The notes beneath the pieces were generated by a model. The model worked only from the letters and a program-made list of their open reading frames with translations, did no database searches and was not told the origin of the DNA. DNA of 64,000 bases from a virus. Made by a program: the position numbers and the translations under genes. Location of the stretch: the IMG/VR virus record IMGVR_UViG_3300047496_000172, positions 42,579 through 106,578 of that record; one strand, written 5' to 3'. Each line of letters starts with the position of its first letter. Position 1 is the stretch's first letter. This document shows positions 2 to 64,000 of this stretch, one piece after another.

Positions 2-1636
2 AAGGAAGATGGCACTTCCGGTCTTCTGATTTATGGTAAGGGTCCGAGGGCGGCTCCTTTTACGGCTGCTTATTCTCGCGGTAATGGAACTGAAGGCGCC
101 GACATTTCACGCCACGTTCGACGCATGGGAAATGTTCCCCGGACTATGCCTTACCCTTGTGTCGTTCGAGTTGAATTCATTCTTCAAGAAACAATCTTCA
201 TTGAGTTGATGAAAACCGCCGAAAAACATTATGAAAACTCTCGCGGTTATCTTGCTGGACGAATGAACAAAGAAGATGCTGGCCAAGATTTCTATGATGT
301 CGTTGATGTTGTTGCTACCTCTCTGGTAGAACCGGGATTGAACAAAATTGACCAGCTACATTTTTTAGAGGATAATGGGTTTCAAATTACGCCGTTTATT
401 ACGGCGAAAGGCTATGAACTAACTGAAAAAATGCTTAGCGATTATCTGAAAGTGCGCCGAACAGCATCTATTTCTCGCGGAGATACAGTATATCTAAATC
501 ACGAAGGTCATGCTATTGATGGCATAGTTATTACGCTAAATGACTATGCACTTGGCCAAAGTCTAACTCGTAAGAGTAGTTCTCTATGCCCCATGTATGC
601 TAAGAAATACAAGGAAGGTGCGGAAGAAAATCAAGCGATCACTACCGTTGTAAAGGTTCACTGGAAAGCTTCCAAAACAAGCTATCTTAAGCCTCGGGTT
701 GAAGTTGTTCCAGTTCGGGTAGGTGGCGTAACGATTACTTTTGCTACCGGATTTAACGCAAAGTATATCATTGATAATGGAATTGGTCCTGGAGCCAAAA
801 TTCGTCTGGTTCGCAGCGGTGACGTTATCCCGTTCATTACTGATGTTCTTGAAAGTGTCGAACCGTCCCTTCCGGACGAATCAGAATATGGAGAAACGGC
901 TTGGAATGAAACAAACGTCGATCTCTATGTTGTGAATTCGGAAAACAATGAAGAAATCATTATCAATAGATTGATTAGTGTCTTCACCTCTCTTGATGCA
1001 CCGAACCTTAAGGAAGGTAGTATCAAGGCTTTGTATGAAGCTGGCTATACAACGGCGGCTTCGATTATCAAGGCCACGGAACGCCAACTGGTATCGGTTA
1101 TCGGCCAAAATGGCAGCAAGATTTATGAAGGGCTGAAGGCCAAGCTGAATCCAATCCATTTGGGTAAGCTGGCTGGCGCCTCGCAGATTTTTGGTCGTGG
1201 TATTGGCCGAAGGACCATGATCAAACTGGTCGATACGGTTGCTTTAGAAACAACCGATGATTGGCTAAATCTAGTTCCTTCTACTATTGTATGTATTGAA
1301 GGTTTTGAAGATATAACCGCACAAAAAATCTACGATAAAATTCCAGCTTTTATAGATTTTCTAAAAGAAATCGACGGATATTACACCTTGGAAACGTCAA
1401 AGACAGCTTCAAGTGCTGATCTAGCCGGGCATGTCGTGGTTTTCACTGGCGTTCGTGATGCGGCTCTTGAAGCTATTATCATTGACAAGGGTGGCACAAT
1501 TGGGAGTAGTGTCAGTAAGAAGACTACCCATTTGGTTTGCCTGGACCCTGCCAGCAATTCAGGCAAGATTCAGAAGGCAAAGGATTTTGGCATCAATGTA
1601 TTGACATTAGAAACAGCCCGAACACAGTGGGGATAA
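2..1636 (+). CDS. ligA: NAD-dependent DNA ligase (5' end outside window)
   Basis: Frame is open from base 2 and reads KEDGTSG (KxDG adenylation motif), SRGNGTEG, IDGIV, RSGDVIP, then a C-terminal BRCT (VFTG..VSKKTTHLV). Confidence 0.95.
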   Translation, partial: KEDGTSGLLIYGKGPRAAPFTAAYSRGNGTEGADISRHVRRMGNVPRTMPYPCVVRVEFILQETIFIELMKTAEKHYENSRGYLAGRMNKEDAGQDFYDVVDVVATSLVEPGLNKIDQLHFLEDNGFQITPFITAKGYELTEKMLSDYLKVRRTASISRGDTVYLNHEGHAIDGIVITLNDYALGQSLTRKSSSLCPMYAKKYKEGAEENQAITTVVKVHWKASKTSYLKPRVEVVPVRVGGVTITFATGFNAKYIIDNGIGPGAKIRLVRSGDVIPFITDVLESVEPSLPDESEYGETAWNETNVDLYVVNSENNEEIIINRLISVFTSLDAPNLKEGSIKALYEAGYTTAASIIKATERQLVSVIGQNGSKIYEGLKAKLNPIHLGKLAGASQIFGRGIGRRTMIKLVDTVALETTDDWLNLVPSTIVCIEGFEDITAQKIYDKIPAFIDFLKEIDGYYTLETSKTASSADLAGHVVVFTGVRDAALEAIIIDKGGTIGSSVSKKTTHLVCLDPASNSGKIQKAKDFGINVLTLETARTQWG

Positions 1637-1637
1637 T

Positions 1638-1901
1638 TCATCCCCACCATAATTTGAATAAAGTCGCGCTATTTTTGTCGGTGAAATACATTTTTGGTGC
1701 AAGTTTTTCAATTTTTGCATCCCAATAAGATATAAATGTGCATAGCCATTCTTCATTTAATAAATTGTTTTCGCACCATTCTATAGCATCTAGAACATAA
1801 TCTTGGTATGTAACGGAATATATAAACTGCGCTGGAATATCAGCTTCTATGAACTCAGTTGATTCAAAGTCTTTATATCCAGGTATGTCATAATATCGCA
1901 T
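1638..1901 (-). CDS. small protein of the FK(M/L)xW paralog family
   Basis: WCENN...YFTDKNSATLFKLWW. Confidence 0.75.
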   Translation of the reverse strand: MRYYDIPGYKDFESTEFIEADIPAQFIYSVTYQDYVLDAIEWCENNLLNEEWLCTFISYWDAKIEKLAPKMYFTDKNSATLFKLWWG

Positions 1902-1902
1902 A

Positions 1903-2121
1903 TTATCTCCAAAACATTTTGAATAAAGTCGCCGATTTTTTATTCGTAAAATTCATAATAAGTAAATTTAATTCGGGCCAATCATAATTTTGTTCCGTAT
2001 AATAACCCCATTCATCGTTGTTTAAATTATCAACACACCATTCGTATGCTCTAATGTAATCAGTTGCATTGAATTTGACTTCTATTGGATGTGTCGGCGG
2101 CGGCGGCGTGTCGTAGTTCAT
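1903..2121 (-). CDS. small protein of the FK(M/L)xW paralog family
   Basis: WCVDN...FTNKKSATLFKMFW; tandem paralog of 1638..1901. Confidence 0.75.
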   Translation of the reverse strand: MNYDTPPPPTHPIEVKFNATDYIRAYEWCVDNLNNDEWGYYTEQNYDWPELNLLIMNFTNKKSATLFKMFWR

Positions 2122-2411
2122 ACGATGTTATCCTTCTAGCGGCTTCTCTTAAAATATGTTCGCGAGGATGACAACCTTCTTTTGCACAGGCGTTAGCATG
2201 CTGGACGACCATATCTAAAAAATCTTTTGTAGATAAACTGCTCATAAATTCGTTCATTATATTTTCCTTAGATATATGAAATTATTAGATAAAATGGAAA
2301 AAATAGTCAATATTTATCACCATAACAAAGAGGTTAAATCATCTTGACAATATTGAAATTTTGATATAAATATACTTTTCAGTTTTGAAACGGTGTTAAA
2401 AAGGATTTATC

Positions 2412-3062
2412 ATGAAGTTTGGTTTTCTCGCGGGCATTCTTGCTCTTACAATCGCAAGCTCTGCCAGAGCGGTAGTTATTACGGATGTTGAATTTGCTGG
2501 TCCAGGACCGATTTACATCATTTCGGATAACGTTCCCGGTTATGGTGCTGATACTTTTTATGATGATGCCTTGGTTTTGACGGCATTGGATGGCACCAAG
2601 TATTATGTGAACTGTGATGATTTGGTTCACAACATTACTATTGGTTCAGGTCAACATATTGACTACACTGTTGGAAAGGTCGATTCCAACTTTCGTGGCG
2701 GTGTTTACACGGTTGCTCAAATTGGCGAAATGGCATACCTGGACAAGGTACTGAACCAAATCATCATTAAGGGTGGTCCAAACGAAGCGGTTGATTTGGC
2801 TGCTGAACAGGCTGCAAGTTGGATTGTAAGTAATCCGGATGTAACATTTTCTGTCGATCCGGTGATTCAATCTCGCACGGATTATTATATTAAGTCCGCA
2901 GAAGGCAAGACTGGCACAATTGCCCAATTTACTGATCTTGGTAACGGTGCGCAGGGACAAACGCTAGGCGCCGTTCCTGAAATTTCAACTTGGGTTATGA
3001 TACTGGTTGGCTTTGGGGGTGTTGGTGTAGCCCTTCGCAAGCGTCGGGCGACTCTGATTTAA
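2412..3062 (+). CDS. secreted PEP-CTERM (PEPxxWA-type) surface protein, possible thioester domain
   Basis: Signal peptide; C-terminal VPEISTWVMILVGFGGVGVALRKRR; internal VNCDD and AEQAASW. Confidence 0.85.
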   Translation: MKFGFLAGILALTIASSARAVVITDVEFAGPGPIYIISDNVPGYGADTFYDDALVLTALDGTKYYVNCDDLVHNITIGSGQHIDYTVGKVDSNFRGGVYTVAQIGEMAYLDKVLNQIIIKGGPNEAVDLAAEQAASWIVSNPDVTFSVDPVIQSRTDYYIKSAEGKTGTIAQFTDLGNGAQGQTLGAVPEISTWVMILVGFGGVGVALRKRRATLI

Positions 3063-3071
3063 ATCAGAGTC
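3050..3071. terminator. 22-bp perfect palindrome between convergent genes
   Basis: gactctgatttaaatcagagtc. Confidence 0.55.
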
Positions 3072-3097
3072 TCCGATTGCGGAAATAAAGAGGTTCG

Positions 3098-3658
3098 TCA
3101 TCTATGATGATCTTGAGAAACAAAATCAGGCAAAGTTTTCATTTTTTCTCTAATTTCCCGTAAGGTTATAGGAGAATAATTCCAGCAATCTACGCCAACA
3201 TCAATCTGTTGTTTGTTTTGGGAAGCCCCACCATGTGAATGTCCAAATAATTGAACGGCACCTTTGTGGCATTTATTAAATATAGCAAATTTAAAATGGC
3301 ACAAGACAATTTTTTGATTTTGGTCGATAATCTCCAAATAAGGTTGAACCGATGCCCAGCGATAAGATTCGATTGTCGTTGGACCATCGTGATTTCCGGT
3401 AATCAAATGTAATTCTTTTCCTTGAAGACGAGAAAGAATGGCGTTTGGATTTGCTTTGTGTCTCCCCAACAAAACATCTCCAAGGACATAAACGCGATCA
3501 TCATCACTGACAACATTATTCCAATTTTTGATTAATGCTTCGTCATGTTCTTCAATGGTCTGGAAGGGCCTGTTGCAAAATTTTAAAATATTTCGCTCTG
3601 AACTTGTGTAATGTCCGTAATGAGGATCGCTTGTATAAAATGTTTTCATCATATCCAT
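3098..3658 (-). CDS. calcineurin-like metallophosphoesterase
   Basis: SDPHYGH, LGD, GNHD, GHSH motifs. Confidence 0.9.
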   Translation of the reverse strand: MDMMKTFYTSDPHYGHYTSSERNILKFCNRPFQTIEEHDEALIKNWNNVVSDDDRVYVLGDVLLGRHKANPNAILSRLQGKELHLITGNHDGPTTIESYRWASVQPYLEIIDQNQKIVLCHFKFAIFNKCHKGAVQLFGHSHGGASQNKQQIDVGVDCWNYSPITLREIREKMKTLPDFVSQDHHR

Positions 3659-3721
3659 TTACACAAAATTATTTTTCTTGTCAACTATTGATTATTTAAA
3701 AAATTATGATATTGTACAGAA

Positions 3722-4042
3722 ATGTATTACCGAGAACCCATATTTCCGCAAACGGTAAAACCAGTATATCTGGTTAAAAATATATTTAGACCTATTGGTG
3801 GTGTTGATCTCAATAAAAAACAACCTAATCATGTAAGTCGTTCTAAAATAAGCCGTCGTCATAAATTTCCAGAGTTGGTTATCCTTGAAAGTAGAGCGAC
3901 GCTTGATCCACCTATCAATAAAAATAGAGCGTCTTGTCGCTATTACTCGGTCAAAGGTAGTGGACGAGACTGGGACTACGATGAACTTATCCATTCAAAA
4001 GAATACGCTTATGCTTGGCTGAATTATTATAGGTCTTGGTAA
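3722..4042 (+). CDS. hypothetical protein, paralog of 4210..4539
   Basis: Shared IFPQ..PVY and LDxPINxNRA..RYYSVKG..DWxYDxLI. Confidence 0.7.
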   Translation: MYYREPIFPQTVKPVYLVKNIFRPIGGVDLNKKQPNHVSRSKISRRHKFPELVILESRATLDPPINKNRASCRYYSVKGSGRDWDYDELIHSKEYAYAWLNYYRSW

Positions 4043-4209
4043 CGTGATCGATTTAATTTTTTATTTGCTTCTATATCTGCTTTATTTCATTAGCCTTCGA
4101 TTGGCTAAACTGCGAAATAGTGCCACATGCAAAATAATCACGGAAGCTATTTTATTTATAGGCTTAATTACTTTTCTTTTCACGCCAATGAAAATTTAAG
4201 AGAGATAAA

Positions 4210-4539
4210 ATGCGTAAAAGATATCATAAAAGACGGAGATATCAAATTTTCCCGCAGAGGATTAGCCCTGTATATATAATTAAGTTTGGAAAATATGGTA
4301 GATACATACCGCATATCGAAAAATCTTACGCAAAATTGGATGAACCGATCAATGGTAATCGCGCCAATTACAGATACTATTCTGTAAAAGGGGATGGCGG
4401 CGATTGGGCTTATGACGATTTGATTCTAACAAAATCCCAATCCATATTAGCGTTGGCCCATTACCGGTTGCATAATATTCATGCTAGGTTTATAGATTAC
4501 GAGAAGAACAGCTTGAAAATTGGAGATCATTCAGCATAG
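4210..4539 (+). CDS. hypothetical protein, paralog of 3722..4042
   Basis: Same shared motifs as 3722..4042. Confidence 0.7.
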   Translation: MRKRYHKRRRYQIFPQRISPVYIIKFGKYGRYIPHIEKSYAKLDEPINGNRANYRYYSVKGDGGDWAYDDLILTKSQSILALAHYRLHNIHARFIDYEKNSLKIGDHSA

Positions 4540-5321: not shown

Positions 5322-5395
5322 TGGTGCCGATAGTAAGAATCGAACTTACATCTCCATATTACGAGTATGGCCGTCTACCACTGACATATACCGGC
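5322..5395 (-). tRNA. tRNA-Thr (CGU) with encoded CCA
   Basis: Minus strand GCCGGTA-TA-TGTC AGTGGTA GACG-G-CCATA CT CGT AA TATGG-AGAT-GTAAG TTCGATT CTTAC-TATCGGC-A-CCA folds as a cloverleaf. Confidence 0.93.
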
Positions 5396-58877: not shown

Positions 58878-59171
58878 TTAGGTTTCAACAATGTTTTCCC
58901 AAAACATTTTGAACAACGCCGCATCAGATTTATCTACTATGTAAATATATAATGTATTAGACCAAGTATTTAATTCGTTTGTAATATAATACAAAGATTT
59001 ACAATTTTCACTAAGCCATTTTTTCATGTTTGTCAATATTGCTATAGTCATGTCTCCATTTATAACAAATCTATTGTTTATCATAGATTCCATATAAGAA
59101 GAACCAGAAAGTGCTTCGAATTCTTTCGGATATAACAAATTAGGTCTTAATAACTCTGGTTTAGCCGCCAT
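58878..59171 (-). CDS. FKMxW-family protein
   Basis: WLSENC..DKSDAALFKMFW. Confidence 0.7.
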   Translation of the reverse strand: MAAKPELLRPNLLYPKEFEALSGSSYMESMINNRFVINGDMTIAILTNMKKWLSENCKSLYYITNELNTWSNTLYIYIVDKSDAALFKMFWENIVET

Positions 59172-60069
59172 ATCGTTCGATCACTTGTCTCATTTCACGC
59201 ATTAATGCGTCAACGCTGATATCACGCTTCACCACCTGGGACAAGTCGCCGTAATGCTCTTCCAGACAGTTGAGCAAAATGTTTCGGATCACCATTTCAT
59301 CCGGAGAATGAGGTAGCTTGCTTGTAGTATACACGTCTTCAAGCGAACGTTCCTTCTCATCGAAATAAGTTTGGATACGTTCCAGAGACCATTCGCCACG
59401 ACGAATACTCTTCAACTGCTCGCGATTGCGCTGAAGATCAAGATCACCTTCGATCATGATCTGCTCTACTTCCGCAAGTAGTCTTACTACATGCATCGCA
59501 AATTTAAGATCATAGCCATGTTCTTCTATTGTTGCAGCGCGTTTTGGATTAGATTTATTTTGTCCGCCTTTTATTTTACTCATTTGGGCGAACGAATAAC
59601 CTTTGAACTTAAACCAAGCCCCTTTATGTAAGAAAAGTTTACGGTTCTCGCGGACGATAGAACTAATTTTCGTAGAATGTATAACACAATTATTCGGCGT
59701 AAACAAACTGGCAATTAAATTTGGATTATTTTCCATACAAAGTTGAAAATACTTAATTATACTAAAAATTGAAAAATCGTATTCTTTTGCTCCACTTGGG
59801 TCTTTAATATGATGCTGCTGATATTGTTCAAACTTTTCTGGCTGTTTACCAAACCCGAAAATTACACCAGCTTCATGAGGAAAAATTATATGACGAGGGG
59901 GAACGCAAAAACCATATATATCAATGTCAGAATCATCAGTGCTACAGCCATAGGCAGCACTTCCCATAATGGTTAAATATGCCGTATTATCGGGCATCCA
60001 TTTTGGGCATGGCATCAAACCGGCAGATTGGAGTTTCTGAATGATCATTTTTAATGAATAGCGCGCCAA
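59161..60069 (-). CDS. Pol-beta-superfamily nucleotidyltransferase (RlaP/YcgL-like)
   Basis: GSAAYG.STDDSDIDIYG, NPN, YDLKFAMH..RL. Confidence 0.88.
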   Translation of the reverse strand: MARYSLKMIIQKLQSAGLMPCPKWMPDNTAYLTIMGSAAYGCSTDDSDIDIYGFCVPPRHIIFPHEAGVIFGFGKQPEKFEQYQQHHIKDPSGAKEYDFSIFSIIKYFQLCMENNPNLIASLFTPNNCVIHSTKISSIVRENRKLFLHKGAWFKFKGYSFAQMSKIKGGQNKSNPKRAATIEEHGYDLKFAMHVVRLLAEVEQIMIEGDLDLQRNREQLKSIRRGEWSLERIQTYFDEKERSLEDVYTTSKLPHSPDEMVIRNILLNCLEEHYGDLSQVVKRDISVDALMREMRQVIERYGG

Positions 60070-60296: not shown

Positions 60297-61082
60297 TTAA
60301 TCTCTCATTTTGAAATGAATAGCTTCAACATCACTTGAAAAAATCCAACCAGTATCTTTAACTCTTATGACTGGATTATAGCAATTTGCAACTATCCAAG
60401 ACCAAGAATCTATGACGTATTCATTTAATTCTTCGAAGGTATTTTCTTTTTCTACATTATCGATTACAAAACTACCAGAAAGTTTTCTAGTAGAATCGAG
60501 TTCTGGAATAAAGGTATCTTCGATAAAGACATTTTTATAGAAAATAGATTTATAATTTTTAAACCATGTCAAAAAATGATCTTTGGTAGTCTGACTACCA
60601 AAAGCTACAAATGTCTTTGGTATTGCGTAGCCATATTGATCAGCATTTTTTGAATTTGAATTATGACGAGTTACAAATCCATAATCTTTAAAATTTTCTC
60701 CGAAGTTTTTAACCCAAATTGTATAATGGAAACGCATAGTTTCGTCAGTAACGTCAAAATCACTAACAAGAAGCTCTAAACAATCATCAAATTTTTCACC
60801 GTTATCTATGGTGCGAACCAGAGGATTTTTTGGAAAAGAAGGTGTTGCGTATGCGCTCATAGAGCCACCTGTATGAATTGATCCTCCTCCAAGAGGTACA
60901 CCATAAGTTAAACCTCCTGTTCCAGGCGCAGCGGGAGCATGAAGTTGCCCGTAACTTGGATTTGGTATAGGAGCAAATATGTTTGTATATGGAGGATAAT
61001 TGGTGTAGTCTGTAATCATTGTTGTTAACCACGCGATATTTGCGGTGGTTGCTACAGAGCAATTCGTAGAATTTGCAGTCAC
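60297..61082 (-). CDS. FKMR-family protein with N-terminal extension
   Basis: WIVANC...IFSSDVEAIHFKMR. Confidence 0.65.
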   Translation of the reverse strand: MTANSTNCSVATTANIAWLTTMITDYTNYPPYTNIFAPIPNPSYGQLHAPAAPGTGGLTYGVPLGGGSIHTGGSMSAYATPSFPKNPLVRTIDNGEKFDDCLELLVSDFDVTDETMRFHYTIWVKNFGENFKDYGFVTRHNSNSKNADQYGYAIPKTFVAFGSQTTKDHFLTWFKNYKSIFYKNVFIEDTFIPELDSTRKLSGSFVIDNVEKENTFEELNEYVIDSWSWIVANCYNPVIRVKDTGWIFSSDVEAIHFKMRD

Positions 61083-61168
61083 GATAATTCCTAAATATTT
61101 TCAGATTATGTGTAGACTATAATAAAAAACGTGGTATTATGCAATATAAGTTTTAAGGAGATAACTCA

Positions 61169-61609
61169 ATGACCTCCCCTAGCATGATTCAAATCACTAC
61201 CGAACTGGCCGATCTGCGGCAAGCGTTTGTGCGTGAAGGTTTCGACCTTCGTTTCGTTGGCGGCATGGTTCGAGATATCATGCTGGGTGTCGATTTTCAC
61301 GATGTAGACCTGTGTTCGGATGCCAATCCTGACGAACAAATCGCAATTTATAAGGCGAATGGTTTCGCCTATTATGAGACTGGAATTAAACATGGGACTG
61401 TTACGGTTCATATCAACAATAATAATTATGAAATAACCAGTCTGCGGACAGAAACTGATCATGATGGTCGTCATGCTACTGTCCAATTTAGTTCGGAACA
61501 GAGTTTAAATCCTGATCTTCTTCAAAAATTTATAGATATGGGCTATAATCCAGATCAAGAGTATGATTTTCAGGAATTGATGGCAGTATTTCAGCGTATA
61601 AACCGATAA
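61169..61609 (+). CDS. cca: CCA-adding enzyme, N-terminal half
   Basis: VGGMVRD..DVD (motif A), G.KHGTV, EITSLRTE..DGRHATV.F. Confidence 0.88.
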   Translation: MTSPSMIQITTELADLRQAFVREGFDLRFVGGMVRDIMLGVDFHDVDLCSDANPDEQIAIYKANGFAYYETGIKHGTVTVHINNNNYEITSLRTETDHDGRHATVQFSSEQSLNPDLLQKFIDMGYNPDQEYDFQELMAVFQRINR

Positions 61610-61931
61610 GATACGGTTTATTTAATTTTTTTGTAAAATGAGTTATCCCGAACTTTGATTTTCCAAGATAATTTTCTGCATTGAAAATTATGATAGATTG
61701 GTTGAATACGTGGATTTTTGTTTTGAAATTAAAAATATATCTGACGAATCAGTAAGCTTAATTTTACCGGCAACATTGGTAAGGAAAATTTCACCAGCTT
61801 TAGAATTCAAAACAGCCAAGATTCTCAAAATGTTTTAAAATAATATTTTTCATTATATTCTTGTTTATTTTTCTTGTTATGATATATTTATTAAATAGTG
61901 CCAATCGACGCGATTTAAGGATAAATACATT

Positions 61932-62780
61932 ATGAAAATAAAGTTAAAGAGTTTTGTGGATATTATTACGGACCAAAATAGGCGTGATTTGACCATAAAT
62001 TCCATGAGCATGACATTCGATGGCGATCTGATCGATCCTTACAATGGCGCCGCCGATCTGAGAAACAAGATTGTTCGTTTTGTTGGAAATCCAGAAATCA
62101 GGATTAAAGAAGATGCATTGAGAATTTTAAGATTCTTGCGTTTTCATGGACGGTTTTCTCAAGGTAAACCATTAAATAATGAAGCGATGAAAGCTATTAT
62201 CCGTAACGCTGAAGGGCTGAAGGGTATCTCTCGCGAACGTGTTTGGATGGAAATGGCTAAAATCGTTACCGGAAATGATGCGAAATATCTGGTCCGAAAT
62301 ATTTACGATATGCATCTGGCCGAAATGATTGGCCTGCCCAATGGTGATGTCAATCGTCTGCAACGACATACCAAGAATCCGGTTACGCTGATGACTTCGA
62401 TGCTGGGAGCAGAAATCGAAGGGCTGACACAAGAATGGAAGTGGAGTGCTGAAGAACGCGATCTGGCTCTGTTTCTGTCTAAGTTTATCAACAAGACTAC
62501 GGATTTCTTTTATACGGATACCAACTATAAGCGGCTGGTAGCCCATGATGGATTTTCAAAGGAATGGGTTTCCGAACTGGCTTTGATGCATAACAACAAG
62601 GTCTTTGCCACTTCTGTAAGGGACTGGGAAGTTCCGACGTTTCCGGTTAAAGGTGTTGATCTGATCAAGGCTGGCATCAAGCCGGGTCCGCAAATGGGTG
62701 AAAAGCTGAGAGAAATGAAGAAGGCTTGGGCCGATTCATTCTACTCTCGAACCAAAGATTCTCTGATGAAAATGATTTAA
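61932..62780 (+). CDS. cca: CCA-adding enzyme, C-terminal half
   Basis: RRDLTIN (motif B), EDALRILR (motif D), SRERVW.E (motif E), FPV.G.DL..G..PGP.MG. Confidence 0.9.
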   Translation: MKIKLKSFVDIITDQNRRDLTINSMSMTFDGDLIDPYNGAADLRNKIVRFVGNPEIRIKEDALRILRFLRFHGRFSQGKPLNNEAMKAIIRNAEGLKGISRERVWMEMAKIVTGNDAKYLVRNIYDMHLAEMIGLPNGDVNRLQRHTKNPVTLMTSMLGAEIEGLTQEWKWSAEERDLALFLSKFINKTTDFFYTDTNYKRLVAHDGFSKEWVSELALMHNNKVFATSVRDWEVPTFPVKGVDLIKAGIKPGPQMGEKLREMKKAWADSFYSRTKDSLMKMI

Positions 62781-62792
62781 GGAGTTTTCAAA

Positions 62793-63060
62793 ATGCAATA
62801 CATTCTTACCCAAAGAAGAGTTTGATGATCTCAAAGCCAAACGACGCGAGGAATTGAAACTTTCTCGTAAAAAGCTTCAAACACTTTGCACAAAAATTAG
62901 CGATACTATGCCGGTCGATTGGGGATGGGGAGAAGGAAACCCCAAACCTTGGGGGTGTATTCTTTCTACGGATGAAGAATGGTATTGCGACGAATGTCCC
63001 GTATCCGAGATTTGTCCTAAAGAGTACTGTCGGATGGGTTCGTTTTACTATGTTTGGTAA
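62793..63060 (+). pseudogene. Cys-rich hypothetical gene with +1 frameshift after codon 7
   Basis: SD AAGGAG, MQYILTQ, then EEFDDLKAKRREELKLSRKK continues in the +1 frame. Confidence 0.55.
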
Positions 63061-63395
63061 GGATGTTTGGATTGCAATCCGATCTACCAAATATCATTAA
63101 ATCGTCAGCCTCAGAATTGAAGAATATCAATGAATCGCTGCTTTTGACCTTCATACGAAAAATGCGTCATCGCGGCGCCGAAAAGTTTTTCATGCCTACC
63201 CCAGATATTCGCAATGGATCAGGATATTATCCGAATGGCCATGGAATAAATCCAACAACACGAGAACCCAATAAACCGCCGCCAGTGGCTACTTATGATT
63301 CACTTCCAAAGAAAATGCGTTTCAAAAAAGAAATTATCAATGGCTTGGACAATAGAGTTGATGGGGATACGGCTTGGGTGCTTGAGAGCCGTTAA
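63054..63395 (+). CDS. hypothetical protein
   Basis: ORF only. Confidence 0.45.
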   Translation: MVRMFGLQSDLPNIIKSSASELKNINESLLLTFIRKMRHRGAEKFFMPTPDIRNGSGYYPNGHGINPTTREPNKPPPVATYDSLPKKMRFKKEIINGLDNRVDGDTAWVLESR

Positions 63396-64000
63396 ATGAT
63401 ATCGTAACTGTTTGGATCGAAATTGGTAGAGAATGCCGATTTAATTTGGCTTGGTGAAAAAACCACATAATGATTTGAAACAAAATGGCCTCTAGGACTG
63501 TCATCGATGTTGAGTGCAATGAATCCATCATAACCTTGTTGCTTGGCGGACTTAATCATTCCTTCAAAATCTATACCTACAGCAGGACCATTACCACCAC
63601 CTTTAAAGTCATATACGGCTGGTTTTTGAATTGAAAGATAAACTGGTAAGATGTTCTGTCCGGTTATTTCATCTTCACGAGTAGCATCAATCTCTAAAGT
63701 TTCCCATGCGCTCATAGCGTCCTCGTAAGGTCTCCAATTACCGGTTTTTTGAGCTTGTTGCTCTAAACGGAAGACTTCATTTTGTAAACGTTCTCTTTTT
63801 CTTTCGAAATATTCTACGTCATGGACGGTGTGTCTACCGGCATTTTCAGCATAATTAGCGGCTTCATCTGGATTGGAAGTGAAGAAGAAACCTAGAGTGG
63901 CGCCGCCATTTTCACCGGTAGACAGACCACCGCGAGTAGCAGAGAACGCATTTATTGGTTGGTTTGTTCCGTGATAAACTTTTAGTGGTTTTCCAGTATC
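63392..64000 (-). CDS. ADP-ribosyltransferase-fold (ART-PolyVal-like) protein, 5' end outside window
   Basis: Frame open to window edge: GKPLKVYHGT..GFFFTS..A.NYA..VYLSI.KP..GYDG..YVVFSPSQIKS. Confidence 0.75.
   Translation of the reverse strand, partial: DTGKPLKVYHGTNQPINAFSATRGGLSTGENGGATLGFFFTSNPDEAANYAENAGRHTVHDVEYFERKRERLQNEVFRLEQQAQKTGNWRPYEDAMSAWETLEIDATREDEITGQNILPVYLSIQKPAVYDFKGGGNGPAVGIDFEGMIKSAKQQGYDGFIALNIDDSPRGHFVSNHYVVFSPSQIKSAFSTNFDPNSYDII

Follow-up and report, generated by a model that had tools for sequence, protein, structure and literature searches.

How does a phage come to carry an enzyme that is elsewhere a single polypeptide as two separate open reading frames (ORFs), and what becomes of the enzyme? 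The question is raised by the gene for a class II CCA-adding enzyme (cca) in IMG/VR virus record IMGVR_UViG_3300047496_000172, which comes from a moss metagenome. We analyzed the final 64 kb of this 106.6-kb viral contig (64,000 nucleotides; hereafter the window), whose CheckV completeness of 18% at that length indicates that it probably derives from a jumbo phage. Here cca is divided into ORF1 (61169-61609, 146 aa) and ORF2 (61932-62780, 282 aa), which lie in different frames on either side of a 322-bp spacer. We found that a homing-endonuclease cassette has inserted into the gene, that remnants of the endonuclease lie in the spacer, that the cassette recurs in other cca genes and is mobile among them, and that the motifs and frames of both halves are intact. 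The explanation we hold to be probable is that the cassette split cca, that its endonuclease then decayed, and that the two halves persist as an enzyme reassembled from two polypeptides.

A sequence-only reading of the locus had already placed motif A and the RTE motif in ORF1 and motifs B to E in ORF2 across a 322-bp gap, with the break between DGRHATVQF and DxxRRD and the catalytic motifs intact. ORF coordinates and Pfam matches agree with the first of these statements, homolog alignments with the second, and the presence of all class II motifs with the third. Other features that it listed are real as well: a 39-aa tail on ORF1, which lies where homology with unsplit homologs ends and which recurs in other sequences; a short new N-terminus of ORF2, 9 codons long, with homology from residue 10 onward; and the Shine-Dalgarno sequence and downstream hairpin of ORF1. 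Absent from that reading was the cause of the split, the endonuclease gene in the gap. The parts of the locus are given below in order; labels of the form L### denote DNA loci of this analysis, and P#### protein sequences.

61155-61160, plus strand: Shine-Dalgarno sequence AAGGAG of ORF1, read from sequence, 8 nt 5' of the ATG.
61169-61495, plus strand: native part of the N-terminal half (cca-N, residues 1-109), from Pfam, structure alignment of an AlphaFold2 (AF2) model and collinearity with unsplit homologs.
61496-61609, plus strand: cassette-encoded C-terminal tail (residues 110-146) and stop codon, from conservation and AF2.
61530-61748, minus strand: endonuclease remnant A, a 72-codon open frame without a start codon, found by tblastn.
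61598-61621, plus strand: terminator-like hairpin with an 8-bp stem and a T-run, covering the ORF1 stop codon, predicted from sequence.
61698-61838, plus strand: endonuclease remnant B, inverted and now a 46-aa ORF, found by tblastn and blastn.
61917-61921, plus strand: Shine-Dalgarno sequence AAGGA of ORF2, read from sequence, 10 nt 5' of the ATG.
61932-61958, plus strand: cassette-supplied start and 9 new N-terminal codons (M-K-I-K-L-K-S-F-V), from conservation of the start and of an FV-containing motif in L084, L085 and L099.
61959-62780, plus strand: native part of the C-terminal half (cca-C, residues 10-282), from Pfam and phmmer.

In the native part of ORF1 lies the head of the class II nucleotidyltransferase; it includes motif A (GGxVRD...DxD), the basic/acidic motif RTE and the flexible loop, as far as ...DGRHATVQFSS. 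Positions 1-93 of the PolyA_pol profile (PF01743) map to it (E 3e-17). Motif A reads VGGMVRD...D45-V-D47 on invariant alignment columns, and the RTE motif and the loop (T-D-H-D-G-R-H-A-T-V-Q-F) lie whole inside ORF1. AF2 predicts the expected head sub-domain, which aligns with structures of CCA-adding enzymes over residues 2-103 (Z 9.8), and a low-confidence or disordered loop at residues 96-112. ORF2 continues with motifs B (RRD), C, D (EDxxRxLRxxRF) and E, followed by the body and tail domains; the motifs were found as RRDLTINS, DPYNGAADL, EDALRILRFLRF and ERVWMEM. Its Pfam matches are PolyA_pol positions 86-126, PolyA_pol_RNAbd and tRNA_NucTran2_2, and its phmmer alignment with human TRNT1 structures (E 1e-50) begins at residue 10.

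The split is no assembly artefact, since a contig from a second, independent assembler and the same sample(s) shows zero differences across 60900-63000 and since the ORF1/ORF2 architecture is repeated at three other loci. It is also far from chance, because the break and the tail recur together in other metagenomes.

Against unsplit homologs, the alignment of ORF1 ends at residue 110 and that of ORF2 begins at residue 10, one residue being shared; these limits place the inserted DNA, some 463 bp, at about 61496-61958. The break follows ...DGRHATVQF and precedes D-I-I-T-D-Q-N-RRD, just past the flexible loop and ahead of the motif B helix. All 77 phage homologs examined from IMG/VR are uninterrupted or collinear across this site (nearly all are whole, and a few are contig-end or frameshifted fragments), where they read ...DGRHAxVx(Y/F)T(R)D-W-x-x-D-x-x-RRDLT.... 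A Caulobacter phage enzyme and human TRNT1 are likewise collinear across the break. Taken together, residues 1-109 of ORF1 and 10-282 of ORF2 make 382 aa, collinear with the class II homologs of 376-391 aa from protein searches, and all sequence motifs of class II enzymes such as human TRNT1, the B. stearothermophilus CCA enzyme and gp296 of Caulobacter phage CcrPW are present. Unlike these enzymes, which have head, neck, body and tail in one polypeptide, the window has two polypeptides, with a tail of 37 aa and 9 N-terminal residues added.

The position of the break bears on what the split could do to the enzyme. The basic/acidic motif and the flexible loop are needed for A76 addition in class II enzymes. 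Both are complete in ORF1, the break coming after the loop and before the motif B helix, and the altered CC/A specificity that had been suggested for the pair finds no support.

What split the gene can be read from relatives of the locus and from the spacer. In L085, an opposite-strand ORF of 343 aa (2421-3452) is located between ORF1 with its tail (2033-2500) and ORF2 (3561-4418), and the last 26 codons of the opposite-strand ORF overlap the ORF1 tail in antisense. This ORF matches PHROG 655 "homing endonuclease" (E 1e-7) and, by tblastn, T4-like free-standing "homing endonuclease" genes located between genes 46 and 47. Its family (15 homologs) has the invariant residues H43 H44 ... N66 ... 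H75 ... H79. The L085 protein has no Pfam match, and its assignment to the Mob-like subfamily is therefore loose. An intact endonuclease also lies in the gap of L090-92, and the L085 arrangement is identical in four records from different samples. Remnants of the endonuclease, in turn, lie in the gap of the window, L084 and L099.

In the window, the last ~50 codons of remnant A (61533-61685) correspond to residues 294-343 of the L085 endonuclease (tblastn E 9e-10; E 1.3e-8 in a search of the window's own record). Remnant B (coding 61698-61820) fuses endonuclease residues ~20-29 directly to residues ~264-297 (tblastn E 2e-6; E 3.6e-4 in the own-record search), so that an internal deletion has removed ~235 codons. 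By blastn against L084 and L085, 61427-61672 is collinear, and 61761-61813 and 61704-61732 are reversed. The 106-kb record holds neither an intact copy of the endonuclease nor a second copy of the spacer.

At least eight to ten other sequences share this tail. A length-restricted protein search brought up ORF1-like proteins of ~145 aa that have it, and a metagenome scan with the tail alignment gave two loci. ORF1-only proteins with the same tail and stop position are P0002, P0003, P0004, P0008 and P0155-P0158, and the tail motif LNPxLLQKFIDMGYNxDQxYxxxELxxxFxxINR is conserved in P0002, P0003, P0004, P0008, L085, L099 and P0156-P0158. A tail search of 1.84 billion representatives placed it on the E. 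coli-type heads P0156 and P0157; scans of viral contigs with these two proteins found nothing. In L099 (1828-3562, minus strand), a cca of the E. coli-type with an HD domain is split at the equivalent place into ORFs of 132 aa and 342 aa, with the same tail, an endonuclease remnant of 55 aa between the halves and the HD domain in ORF2. The downstream end of the insert recurs too: an ORF2 start of the form ATGAAA(T/A)TA followed by ...FV(D/N) is common to the window, L084, L085 and L099, and an SD-like (Shine-Dalgarno-like) G-rich sequence precedes the equivalent ATG in L084 and L085. The F-V of the new N-terminus echoes the native Y-T of the V-x-Y-T-R-D strand. At least three divergent lineages of cca have the same cassette, the HD-domain subfamily of the E. 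coli type among them.

In a tree of the head and body, the cca of the window clusters with the intact genes L004 and P0019-P0023, and that of L085 lies inside another well-supported group of intact genes, L047-L075. The split genes of the window and L085 are rejected as one clade by an approximately unbiased (AU) test made on a 25-row subset of 81 rows, for a group named after seeing a tree (difference in log-likelihood, delta lnL, 145; p = 0.000165). Because its host genes do not form one clade, the cassette is mobile. Its presence in cca genes that are not sisters gives indirect support to homing. Its endonuclease family also occurs outside cca. In L093, a gene of this family (309 aa, 2887-3816, plus strand) stands directly upstream of, and divergent from, an intact E. 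coli-type cca of 427 aa (1557-2840, minus strand), to judge by its location a free-standing position beside its presumed target gene. More distant relatives of the endonuclease occur at unrelated sites, such as L094 and L097 (IMG/VR), where they adjoin DnaB-like helicase genes, not cca.

In the tail of ORF1, AF2 predicts two helices (residues 115-123 and 134-144, predicted local distance difference test scores of about 65-86). Between the window and L085 the identity of the tail is 59%, as against 38% for the head, and in distant pairs its conservation exceeds that of the enzyme. The alignment of ORF1 with solved CCA enzymes covers residues 2-103 and so stops short of the tail, for which mimicry of the motif B helix had been considered. 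Most of the tail is antisense to the 3' end of the endonuclease frame. The core of the endonuclease family stops at LIGLYVE.L and only the members inserted in cca continue through the tail antisense, which suggests that the middle part of the tail is constrained on the cca strand.

Two further observations concern the tail. The peptide encoded by 61496-61606 gave a multi-stretch match to a tetratricopeptide-repeat (TPR) protein (P0154) and a weaker one to an ankyrin-repeat protein (P0159). We rejected homology to either as a resemblance driven by repeats; the tail looks like a single TPR-like helical hairpin, in resemblance only. Separately, a stretch of ~25 nt (AAAAATTTATAGATATGGG.TAT) within 61509-61545 is invariant at the DNA level among the window, L084 and L085, the enzymes of which are 38-60% identical. 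It takes in the stop codon of the endonuclease as well as F-I-D-M-G, tail codons that are read from the opposite strand, and may reflect a dual-coding constraint or a DNA or RNA signal.

These observations are best explained by the following course of events. A Mob-like HNH endonuclease gene of the free-standing type entered a class II cca just past the flexible loop and ahead of the motif B helix, running counter to cca. On the cca strand, the left end of the cassette gives the upstream half a two-helix tail of ~37 aa and a stop codon, the tail being largely antisense to the endonuclease 3' end, and the right end gives the downstream half a ribosome-binding site, an ATG and ~9 codons. The cassette is mobile, being present at the same break point in cca genes of distinct lineages. 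In the window, the endonuclease later decayed by internal deletion and inversion, with both cca halves retained. The halves would be translated separately and reassemble non-covalently around a composite active site made of motif A from ORF1 and motifs B to E from ORF2, and the conserved tail may aid their assembly.

Is the split enzyme a functional one? The argument for function rests on three loci, the window, L084 and L099. At each of them the endonuclease is dead and both cca halves are open with all motifs, the pattern expected if the halves are selected and the fixed endonuclease is not. The proportion of nonsynonymous differences (pN, 0.26-0.43) is far below that of synonymous ones (pS) in both halves, and the ORF1 stop and the Shine-Dalgarno sequence and ATG of ORF2 are conserved across lineages that are 38-65% identical in the head.

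Three points weigh against the preferred explanation. With a mobile cassette, a given invasion may be recent, and intact halves on their own are then weaker evidence of function. The conservation of the tail is confounded by the antisense endonuclease frame. Finally, a scan for sigma-70-like promoters gave sites not above chance, with none on the plus strand from the hairpin to ORF2. A search for RNA-seq runs containing the sequence found none.

The first of these points leads to the best-surviving alternative, that the insertion inactivated cca recently and that the halves are a dead gene yet to gain stop codons. The mobility of the cassette allows for recent invasions, and the synonymous divergence of the tail (pS 0.43-0.51, unsaturated) is below that of the host gene (head and ORF2, 0.76-1.0, saturated), although antisense coding may account for part of this low value. 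Yet deletion or rearrangement has affected the endonuclease in the window, L084 and L099, and the halves there are still open with all their motifs; nor would a dead gene lead one to expect the low pN, the stop and start signals shared across divergent lineages or the unchanged L085 arrangement in four records from different samples. We regard recent inactivation as unlikely.

A second alternative is that an unrecognized self-splicing intron, with an antisense endonuclease in relatives, restores one mRNA and one polypeptide. Endonuclease genes of phages often reside in group I introns, ORF1 resembles an exon frame in extending into the insert, the junctions have a 5' U and a 3' G nearby, and divergent introns can escape covariance models. 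Against this, Rfam intron models gave no match in the window at E <= 10 or in L084 and L085 at E <= 1, and the fold of 61470-61990 shows no excess stability over shuffles (z = -0.07). In L085 the endonuclease ORF on the opposite strand takes up nearly all of the interval. The deletion and inversion in the window would wreck an intron core, yet the flanking halves were kept. Conserved, too, are an in-frame tail and stop on ORF1 and a Shine-Dalgarno sequence and ATG on ORF2. We consider an intron quite improbable.

Protein splicing fares no better: no split-intein signature was found, the ORF2 extension being 9 residues without H-N, the tail having no intein blocks and Pfam giving no intein match. 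The absence of intein ends and of an intron core, which the sequence-only reading had reported, thus stands after intron models were run on the spacer. A weak HMMER extension of ORF2 upstream across a TAG made read-through a candidate, which we rejected since the ORF1 stop is TAA; because ORF1 ends in TAA and long ORFs of the window use all three stops, recoding is not indicated.

That the two ORFs have taken on separate functions, ORF1 with its tail as a minimal nucleotidyltransferase or regulator and ORF2 as a tRNA-binding protein, fits the recognizable small family of tail-bearing ORF1-like proteins and the likeness of the tail to a single TPR-like hairpin (with its spurious multi-repeat matches to P0154), but is very improbable given that, wherever DNA is available, ORF2 lies just downstream and starts exactly at the end of ORF1 homology, and that no class II enzyme is known in which motif A selects or binds nucleoside triphosphates (NTPs) in the absence of motifs B and D.

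Separate translation without splicing, with the halves reassembling into an active CCA-adding enzyme, is thus the most likely outcome, judging from comparison of sequences and from analogous split genes. The unspliced, two-polypeptide split envisaged by the sequence-only reading gains support from comparative evidence in the intactness of the halves and the purifying selection on them in several lineages, with a Shine-Dalgarno sequence and ATG for each half. Its account of expression holds in part. The AAGGA signal of ORF2 is present, and so is GATAAATA, at 61920-61927. As a late promoter, GATAAATA is not borne out: it overlaps the Shine-Dalgarno sequence and shows no enrichment in the window (12 matches where 6.7 +/- 2.5 are expected, with 12 reached in 5 of 100 shuffles). 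The proposal that late expression of ORF2 times the enzyme through GATAAATA likewise lacks support.

The closest precedent is the gene nrdA of Aeromonas phage Aeh1, which Friedrich et al. reportedly described in 2007 as a "genes in pieces" ribonucleotide reductase split by mobE. The nrdA/mobE case is summarized in PMC7344957. The sequence-only reading had invoked this analogy, and it is closer than claimed, since the spacer of the window holds HNH endonuclease remnants and L085 has an intact gene. In both systems, a conserved phage enzyme gene that is uninterrupted in relatives harbors an HNH endonuclease gene of the Mob type. The insertion ends the upstream piece with a stop codon and provides the downstream piece with a new start, apparently without splicing in the window as in Aeh1, and an active enzyme would re-form from the pieces, which for the window is our proposal. 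The marks of genes in pieces are found here: uninterrupted relatives, an endonuclease gene in the gap, and an own Shine-Dalgarno sequence, ATG and open frame for each piece. The window differs from Aeh1 in its target, a CCA-adding enzyme, and in the orientation of the endonuclease gene, which runs antisense to the host gene and overlaps the newly gained tail. It also differs in the conservation of that tail, in the occurrence of the cassette in three or more divergent cca lineages and in the decay that the endonuclease has already undergone.

Genes split by mobile endonucleases are also known from the topoisomerase genes 39/60 of T4, with mobA, and from the split gp43 DNA polymerases of T4-related phages. 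In these, as would be the case in the window, a cassette turned one gene into two expressed pieces of a working enzyme; the window differs in having no ribosomal bypass element, another enzyme and another break point. In Pectobacterium phage CB7, an HNH element that is not removed at the mRNA level interrupts the nicotinamide phosphoribosyltransferase gene (PMC7344957). CB7 resembles the window in that an HNH element splits a phage metabolic gene, but the gene is another one, and neither a conserved tail nor spread across subfamilies is reported for CB7 (PMC7344957). Full-text literature searches turned up neither a split CCA-adding enzyme nor an endonuclease within cca. Three features of the cassette are unusual: the overlap in antisense, a tail and start that are portable as well as conserved, and the spread over cca subfamilies.

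The surroundings of the locus offer a few further observations. At the DNA level, the window showed no match to known phages. An RlaP-family protein (RNA repair pathway DNA polymerase beta family, 302 aa, 59161-60069, minus strand, Pfam E 1e-15) is encoded 1.1 kb upstream of the split cca on the opposite strand. This neighbor fits a tRNA-repair role for the locus, and the two genes may form a tRNA/RNA-repair module. On the other side, an ART-PolyVal ADP-ribosyltransferase domain (63392-64000, minus strand, Pfam E 9e-22) continues past the end of the window. A tRNA-Thr(CGT) at 5322-5395 (minus strand) is the sole tRNA gene detected within the window.

A bolder version of the preferred explanation holds that the cassette is a specialized gene-splitting element with its own adaptor. 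The TPR-like two-helix tail and the strand-mimicking N-terminus would aid reassembly of the halves, so that the endonuclease could colonize the most conserved part of cca across unrelated phages. We put this forward tentatively, as possible rather than probable. If it were true, a selfish element would have evolved, in the tail, a portable module for protein complementation, encoded antisense to the 3' end of its own endonuclease.

For the biology of phages and of this enzyme family, the locus displays one cassette at several stages of its life cycle, intact within cca (L085), decayed within cca (window, L084 and L099) and beside an intact cca (L093). The cassette brings a stop, a tail and a start, which may be how the host gene tolerates its invasion. 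Phage "PolyA_pol" ORFs of ~145 aa and ~280 aa should be annotated as one split cca and not as fragments or pseudogenes. Should the halves be active, a CCA-adding enzyme would for the first time be known to function in the form of two polypeptides. With its break next to the loop and motif B, elements by which nucleotide specificity is set, it would amount to a natural complementation experiment on a well-studied enzyme.

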